A stretch of DNA of 410 bases from Escherichia coli (GTDB lineage Bacteria; Pseudomonadota; Gammaproteobacteria; Enterobacterales; Enterobacteriaceae), in NCBI RefSeq assembly GCF_003334335.1, contig NZ_QOWQ01000196.1. One strand, given 5' to 3'. Made by a program: the position numbers and the translations under genes. How positions within the stretch are numbered: position 1 is the stretch's first letter; each line of letters starts with the position of its first letter. Shown piece by piece: positions 1-410 of this stretch. The notes under the pieces were generated by a model. The model ran no database searches. It saw nothing but the letters and a program-made list of their open reading frames with translations, and was not told the origin of the DNA.

Positions 1-401
1 GCAAGCACCTCATTTTTTGTTGGGGTGCTTTTTTTCAATTCAGCGATATAGCACTCCAGTTTTTCAATGCGTGATTCGATATCATCTTTTTCTGACAGTA
101 TCGTGTTATATGCATTGTTAATTTGTATGGTATACCGATCTTCGGAACAAAGGCACTTTTCCTGTGACTGTTCATCCCCTTCACATAACCCGGCAGCAAT
201 ATCCATGAAAAACTGCTTCGCCTTCTTTTTCGCCTCAGCTTCGTAAAACTCCAGCGGGGCACCTTCAACACGATCAAGATCAATCACCACATTTGGCAAC
301 AACAGTGACGTATACCCACCCGTTTCCAGCGCTACAGTAACAGTAATCTTATCCGGGTAATTATTTATCCCTTTAACAACCAGTTCGTATTGTTTATTCA
401 T
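1..401 (-). CDS. Hypothetical protein, 5' portion only (start codon in window, 3' end beyond left edge). Visible product (133 aa): MNKQYELVVKGINNYPDKITVTVALETGGYTSLLLPNVVIDLDRVEGAPLEFYEAEAKKKAKQFFMDIAAGLCEGDEQSQEKCLCSEDRYTIQINNAYNTILSEKDDIESRIEKLECYIAELKKSTPTKNEVL...
   Basis: Manual reverse-complement translation: ATG at plus coordinates 401..399, then 133 sense codons with no stop down to position 3 (2 nt left over at 1..2). An in-frame TAG at 405..407 fixes this ATG as the first possible start. An open frame this long in AT-leaning DNA is unlikely by chance. The protein has a non-random make-up: alternating hydrophobic beta-like segments, an amphipathic Lys/Ala helix and a heptad-spaced Ile/Leu helix. 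Codon choice (CTG, CCG, GCG, AAA) looks like a Gram-negative enteric-type gene, but that is impression only. Not in the ORF track, consistent with the track needing an in-window stop. Confidence 0.78.
   Translation of the reverse strand, partial: MNKQYELVVKGINNYPDKITVTVALETGGYTSLLLPNVVIDLDRVEGAPLEFYEAEAKKKAKQFFMDIAAGLCEGDEQSQEKCLCSEDRYTIQINNAYNTILSEKDDIESRIEKLECYIAELKKSTPTKNEVL
5..35 (+). terminator. Intrinsic-terminator-like hairpin plus T-tract on the plus strand, embedded in the minus-strand coding region
   Basis: Plus-strand stem 5-11 (gcacctc) pairs with 22-28 (ggggtgc): 6 Watson-Crick pairs and one G-U wobble. Loop 12-21 (attttttgtt), followed immediately by T7 at 29-35. The loop is larger than in typical strong terminators (8 nt if a12:t21 also pair), so stability is only moderate. 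The orientation would terminate rightward transcripts entering from the left edge. Confidence 0.25.
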
Positions 402-407
402 CGTCTA

Positions 408-410
408 CTC
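408..410 (-). promoter_or_regulatory. Possible partial Shine-Dalgarno element (GAG) upstream of the ATG; the rest of any ribosome-binding site would lie outside the window
   Basis: Minus-strand sequence reads GAGTAGACG-ATG. The GAG is separated from the ATG by 6 nt, a spacing compatible with an SD core. Only 9 nt of upstream sequence is visible, so a complete GGAG/AGGAG cannot be confirmed. Confidence 0.25.

Follow-up and report, generated by a model that had tools for sequence, protein, structure and literature searches.

The window, by which we mean the whole stretch of 410 nucleotides analysed from Escherichia coli contig NZ_QOWQ01000196.1, is taken up for the most part by a single gene on the minus strand, and its right-hand end carries the boundary between this gene and the one before it. 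Positions 1..401 (-) hold the 5' 133 codons of a gene of the DUF1327/YdfR family, which begins at ATG 399-401 and is cut by the left window edge, up to which the reading frame stays open over all 133 codons. Upstream of the ATG lie an intercistronic spacer of 3 nt, ACG (402..404, -), which is read in the window and in its relatives alike, the stop codon TAG (405..407, -) and the triplet GAG (408..410, -). Relatives that extend beyond the window read ...CGG GGA GAG TAG ACG ATG at this place, where the GAG is both the last sense codon (Glu71) of a holin gene and the 3' end of a Shine-Dalgarno (SD) sequence, GGGGAG(AG), and the TAG is the functional holin stop. We put the probability at roughly 90% that window positions 394-410 form the junction of two adjacent genes within the late (lysis) transcription unit of an E. 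coli prophage that is lambdoid and resembles Stx phages. The pinholin gene S would end at TAG 405-407 and, after the 3-nt spacer, ATG 399-401 would open the DUF1327/YdfR-family gene, an accessory gene placed between the pinholin gene and the gene of an endolysin with a hydrophobic N-terminus of the SAR kind.

Residues 1-80 of the window protein constitute the DUF1327 domain and match positions 1-80 of the 93-position Pfam model DUF1327 (PF07041) with E = 1.8e-34, and the C-terminal part of the protein is mosaic. The ORF also matches PHROG 2091 (E = 1e-62), a PHROG of unknown function, and it shares 39% identity with K-12 YdfR over the N-terminal domains (BLASTP, E = 7e-23). No solved-structure relative and no NCBIfam model was found for the window protein, and all of the matching PHROGs are of unknown function. 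An in-frame stop 3 nt upstream and a family match that begins at model position 1 together support ATG 399-401 as the true and unambiguous start. A number of these DUF1327 genes carry a partial or pseudogene label in RefSeq, although their ORFs are intact (169 aa in phage PhiR12_1 and 176 aa in locus L003). Three further ORFs of the window, two on the plus strand (17-121 and 67-246) and one in an alternative minus-strand frame (35-283), lie within the DUF1327 reading frame and were treated as incidental.

The gene upstream was identified through close relatives of the window. Counted from window base 410, 357 nt of E. coli EC2 are 100% identical to the window, and the corresponding stretch of phage PhiR12_1 is 99.7% identical (megablast); this identity covers the 9 visible bases upstream of the ATG and the next 348 nt, and the identity of the holin rests on those relatives. 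In both of them an annotated class II holin coding sequence ends exactly at the TAG equivalent to 405-407 (in locus L001 it spans 4791-5006, and locus position 5006 corresponds to window position 405), and an annotated DUF1327 coding sequence begins at the ATG equivalent to window position 401. The holin has 71 aa (MYQMEKITTG...RKAARGE) and matches Pfam PF04971 (bacteriophage P21 holin S) with E = 8e-33. Hence the relatives carry a P21-type class II holin gene directly upstream on the same strand, the window itself holds its last codon and stop, and from the identity over 357 nt, with 9 nt visible upstream of the ATG, we infer that the same holin gene lies upstream here. The preliminary description had reasoned that any upstream minus-strand gene must end within a few nucleotides of this start, and the 71-aa holin that ends at TAG 405-407 in the window-identical relatives bears this out.

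The junction is an ordinary one that is already known: hundreds of genomes carry it in annotated form, and so does K-12. An intact holin ORF precedes the DUF1327 gene in 52 of the 54 IMG/VR loci that have a DUF1327 gene and enough upstream DNA, with a holin-to-ATG gap of 3 nt and a TAG stop in 24 loci and a gap of 4 nt and a TAA stop in 28; the holin copies of the remaining two are frameshifted. From 975 matching E. coli records a spread of 40 was sampled, and in every one (40/40) the 5' end of the match falls on an annotated holin gene. Among complete E. coli genomes, 965 of 5,426 have the junction, in up to 9 copies per genome. That the window belongs to a prophage lysis cluster which is very common and well known matters little in itself; of wider interest is that a DUF1327/YdfR gene stands between the pinholin and endolysin genes in roughly one in five complete E. 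coli genomes. The holin copies of loci L005 (about 2760-3004) and L061 carry frame-disrupting indels and are probably decayed prophage copies or assembly errors; in L005 the shifted holin frame runs on up to the ATGA of the DUF1327 start, where it ends at the TGA.

Read from 410 to 393, the minus strand is GAG TAG ACG ATG AAT AAA, and three-frame translation places one stop in each minus-strand frame. TAG 405-407 shares the frame of ATG 399-401 and lies 3 nt upstream of it, TGA (398..400, -) is out of frame and overlaps the start as ATGA, and TAA (394..396, -) is out of frame as well, with all three frames closed within 14 nt. The preliminary description had reported exactly these stops, and translation confirms its coordinates and its wording. 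It had also used them as evidence of an upstream gene, but stops merely limit how far a reading frame can extend and do not show that a gene exists. Nor does its reading of the ATGA as a stop/start overlap stand: the upstream stop is the TAG, the arrangement is stop, 3 nt, start, and the frame of the TGA holds no intact gene. In the intact loci the upstream ORF always ends at a TAG or TAA before the ATG and in none of them at the TGA of the ATGA, which only a frameshifted holin copy reaches. The TGA is there because codon 2 (AAT) begins with A, and the TAA is an incidental product of codons 2-3 (AAT AAA). Because both are dictated by the A-rich codons of Met-Asn-Lys, neither would have a role, and of the three stops only the TAG upstream of the ATG appears to be functional. 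A methodological lesson is that, near a gene start, one stop reflects the upstream gene and extra out-of-frame stops can follow from A-rich early codons.

In the relatives the DUF1327 gene has GGGGAG as its SD sequence, 8 nt ahead of the ATG; of this hexamer the window includes just the final GAG. The duplex of GGGGAG with the anti-SD has an energy of -7.7 kcal/mol, which places it 10th among the 40 annotated starts of two prophage regions. The 12 nt that the window shows give -4.1 kcal/mol, a value obtained with a longer anti-SD and a different mRNA segment and not directly comparable with the former. What had been described as a weak visible SD is a window-edge effect, given that most of GGGGAG lies beyond the right edge, and it illustrates that an SD may look weak solely because the window cuts through it. 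The final Gly and Glu codons of the holin gene would provide the ribosome-binding site of the DUF1327 gene. The penultimate holin Gly is encoded by GGA in 51 of 53 distinct holin sequences, compared with 16% at other Gly positions, and the last holin Glu by GAG in 52 of 52, compared with 33% elsewhere. This codon bias at the end of the holin gene, counted in related and non-independent sequences, suggests selection for the SD. With the SD fixed inside the end of the holin gene, any following gene must therefore start 3-4 nt after the holin stop. Across alleles the spacers read ACG, AGCG, GGCG, AGTG, GCTG, TTCA, TCCA, GTG and ATA, varying in sequence and always 3-4 nt in length, and genes unrelated to DUF1327 also begin 3-4 nt after the same holin, namely an endolysin gene whose product starts MSRKLRYGLSAA and a gene whose product starts MNHEEMNQRFS. 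Conservation of the stop-to-start distance regardless of the downstream gene agrees with a shared ribosome-binding site.

The gene order around the junction, all on one strand, is Q, a nanS-p-like (SASA/NanS-p-type) esterase gene, DUF1378, DUF826, holin, DUF1327, lysozyme, spanin and terminase; in the annotations of loci L001, L002 and L003 the antiterminator gene Q lies upstream and the endolysin and spanin genes downstream on the same strand. The endolysin begins MNAKIRYGLSAAILALITAGASA, a hydrophobic N-terminus, and its SAR function is putative. Stx-converting and other lambdoid phages (PhiR12_1, Stx1a phages, phage 86 and BP-4795) carry the same holin and DUF1327 genes at 90-99.7% nucleotide identity, already annotated. 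As in the window lineage, the junction of Stx-converting phages is part of the late region that follows Q and nanS-p, and their late genes are Q-dependent (PMC10462455); a pinholin combined with a SAR endolysin is the rule in these phages (PMC8136144). Both holin and DUF1327 would be read from a Q-antiterminated late transcript. The earlier proposal that the DUF1327 gene is not the first in its transcription unit holds up, as same-strand lysis genes lie downstream of Q and the holin gene ends 3 nt before the ATG, and a search of the relatives found neither a long intergenic region nor an upstream gene on the opposite strand. On the basis of this comparative evidence an operon-internal position is well supported. 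Within the late unit, the stretch that separates the DUF826 gene from the holin start has a terminator-like hairpin on the sense strand (L001 4725-4753 (+), L003 4727-4750), and Q-modified RNA polymerase would presumably read through it.

The DUF1327 gene could be translated by fresh ribosomes that load on the SD or by ribosomes that have just terminated at the holin stop 3 nt away, and reinitiation of the latter kind would link DUF1327 synthesis to holin synthesis. Translational coupling from holin to DUF1327 is plausible from the geometry, and independent initiation is equally plausible. A strict form of coupling, in which ribosomes that finish the holin and reinitiate 3 nt on make all or most of the DUF1327 protein, at a fixed protein ratio, would account for a stop-to-start distance of 3-4 nt that is kept across all alleles despite varying spacer sequences. 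The upstream stop lies within a few nucleotides of the start (a 3-nt gap here), as in coupled pairs, and the SD and start would fall inside the footprint of a ribosome terminating at the holin stop. However, the same distance is equally explained by an SD fixed within the final holin codons, and the start is not one that is unavailable on its own, whether masked or devoid of an SD. The SD is above the median and suitably spaced, which allows independent initiation, and in 131 nt of RNA around the junction no structure beyond that of shuffled sequences masks the SD or the AUG (minimum free energy -19.9 kcal/mol against a shuffle mean of -21.2 kcal/mol, z = +0.43). Occluding mRNA structure as a sign of coupling was rejected on this result, and we regard strict coupling as possible but doubtful. 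Classical coupled operon pairs of E. coli have ATGA or TAATG overlaps. The window junction resembles these pairs in its very short stop-to-start distance and in having the downstream SD embedded in the upstream coding sequence, and it differs from them in lacking an overlap and in having a good SD free of structure, so that translation of the downstream gene does not have to rely on that of the upstream gene. As a remote, allele-specific variant, the in-frame TAG and the 3-nt spacer may let amber read-through yield a pinholin-DUF1327 fusion protein.

Two further readings concern the stop cluster and the promoter. Closure of all three frames is uncommon, as three-frame stops in a 17-nt stretch arose in 1.05% of trials of a composition-matched random model with the ATG fixed, or in 3.3% given the stop of an upstream gene, and in three related prophage regions with 52 annotated gene starts, all three stops occur at one start, the present one, and two stops at 15. 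Such rarity (1-3% by chance, 1 of 52 local starts) would favour a selected 'frame-proof' barrier that halts frameshifted or read-through holin ribosomes before or at the DUF1327 start, as would the holin copy of L005, in which a 1-nt insertion leads to reading through to the TGA of the ATGA. However, L005 is a single copy that is probably defective or mis-assembled. The third-frame TAA is absent from sister alleles that begin ATG AAG AAA or ATG ACT CAA; the ATGA-type TGA is present in all of these alleles as well, and it is owed to an A-initial codon 2, which 24 of the 52 local starts (46%) share. The pattern is thus uncommon, yet by this comparison it is probably neither a conserved nor a selected feature. 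With the TAA missing in sister alleles and the extra stops fully set by the Met-Asn-Lys codons, the barrier was rejected as a selected feature, and we give it next to no probability. The other reading makes DUF1327 an independently transcribed moron, with its own promoter in or just after the holin gene and with expression in lysogens. Morons often have their own promoters, and the DUF1327 gene is indeed accessory, being missing from some cassettes in which the endolysin gene directly follows the holin gene, and mosaic in its 3' half. Against this, the gap to the holin stop is just 3 nt, and a crude consensus scan, which missed the expected late promoter too, gave no sigma-70-like site on the sense strand from Q to the spanin gene or within the holin gene; an insensitive consensus scan likewise found no promoter-like sense-strand site in the window. 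An internal promoter was set aside on these scans, which are weak negative evidence. In addition, RNA-seq of K-12 under standard growth yields almost no ydfR reads (PMC13232886), and a moron with its own promoter seems very unlikely to us.

Returning to the preferred reading, in which the DUF1327 gene is an internal member of the late lysis unit, the closest known parallel is given by the cryptic prophage Qin of K-12 (essQ-ydfR-rrrQ-rzpQ), which, like the window lineage, has a P21-type holin, DUF1327/YdfR, a lysozyme and a spanin; ydfR has been described as co-transcribed with three other Qin genes (PMC13232886). The Qin junction is built like that of the window, with a holin gene ending ...GGA GAG stop, 4 nt and an ATG, the SD in the last holin codons and an ATGA at the start. 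Unlike in the window, the TAA of essQ is followed by TCCA and by the ATG ACT CAA of ydfR, with stop and start in different frames, and there is no third-frame TAA. YdfR of K-12 has 103 aa, whereas the gene of the window lineage has at least 133 codons, with a mosaic, coiled-coil-like tail. Overlaps of 4 nt join ydfR to rrrQ and rrrQ to rzpQ in Qin, whereas in the window lineage a convergent antisense gene separates DUF1327 from the endolysin gene. The endolysin starts of L002 (5839) and of K-12 (L062, 6058, -) have essentially no SD (+0.6 and +0.7 kcal/mol, ranks 38-39 of 40), and both lie in the context TAAATATC(C/T)ATGAAC; in K-12 the endolysin (rrrQ) start overlaps the ydfR stop as ATGA. 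Because the endolysin start is essentially SD-less and has this ATGA overlap in K-12, ydfR-to-rrrQ is a better candidate for genuine translational coupling than holin-to-DUF1327.

The sole functional lead for the DUF1327/YdfR family also comes from K-12, for which a 2026 study (PMC13232886) reported that residues 1-72 of YdfR bind the N-terminal, catalytic half of RNase E and that YdfR co-purifies with RNA. By analogy, the DUF1327 domain of the window may act late in the phage cycle by binding the catalytic half of host RNase E, and the position of its gene 3 nt after the holin stop, with a ribosome-binding region shared with the holin gene, would tie its dosage to holin synthesis by reinitiation. 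We consider this unlikely; if it were true, control of host RNA decay would be linked to the timing of lysis.

The window is itself recombinant. On the minus strand its first 357 nt agree with E. coli EC2 at every position, whereas the last 53 nt (window 1-53) are of the CP55 type, and the switch falls within a short stretch common to both types, GAATCACGCATTGAAAAACTGGAG. Here the window differs from the Stx-converting phages, as its mosaic of an EC2-like 5' part of 357 nt and a CP55-like last part of 53 nt was found in no collection searched. A 48-nt exact pattern spanning the joint is absent from the viral, metagenome and genome contig collections, and among complete E. coli genomes and phage records no single-locus match spans more than 87% of the window.

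On the strand opposite the DUF1327 ORF, window positions 3-37 (+) hold a strong hairpin, AAGCACCTCATTTTTTGTTGGGGTGCTT, followed by TTTTTC, which corresponds to L003 5450-5416 (-). Its minimum free energy is -15.5 kcal/mol (z = -4.5), and none of 200 shuffled sequences was as stable (0/200). The equivalent hairpin in L003 comes 23 nt beyond the stop of a convergent ORF of 79 aa that lacks annotation (5473-5712, phrog_18136), and by its appearance the hairpin would be an intrinsic terminator for a small antisense gene that sits between the DUF1327 and endolysin genes. At the same position the EC2/PhiR12 lineage has a different antisense gene, DUF1823 (phrog_2572; L001/L002 5467-5727 (-)), for which no similarity to the 79-aa ORF of L003 was found. 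The DUF1823 gene overlaps the 3' end of DUF1327 and is followed by a strong hairpin and U-run of its own (L001 5405-5470 (-), -22.5 kcal/mol, z = -4.3). The late lysis cluster would accordingly hold, at one site, two non-homologous convergent modules, each made up of a gene plus a predicted terminator.
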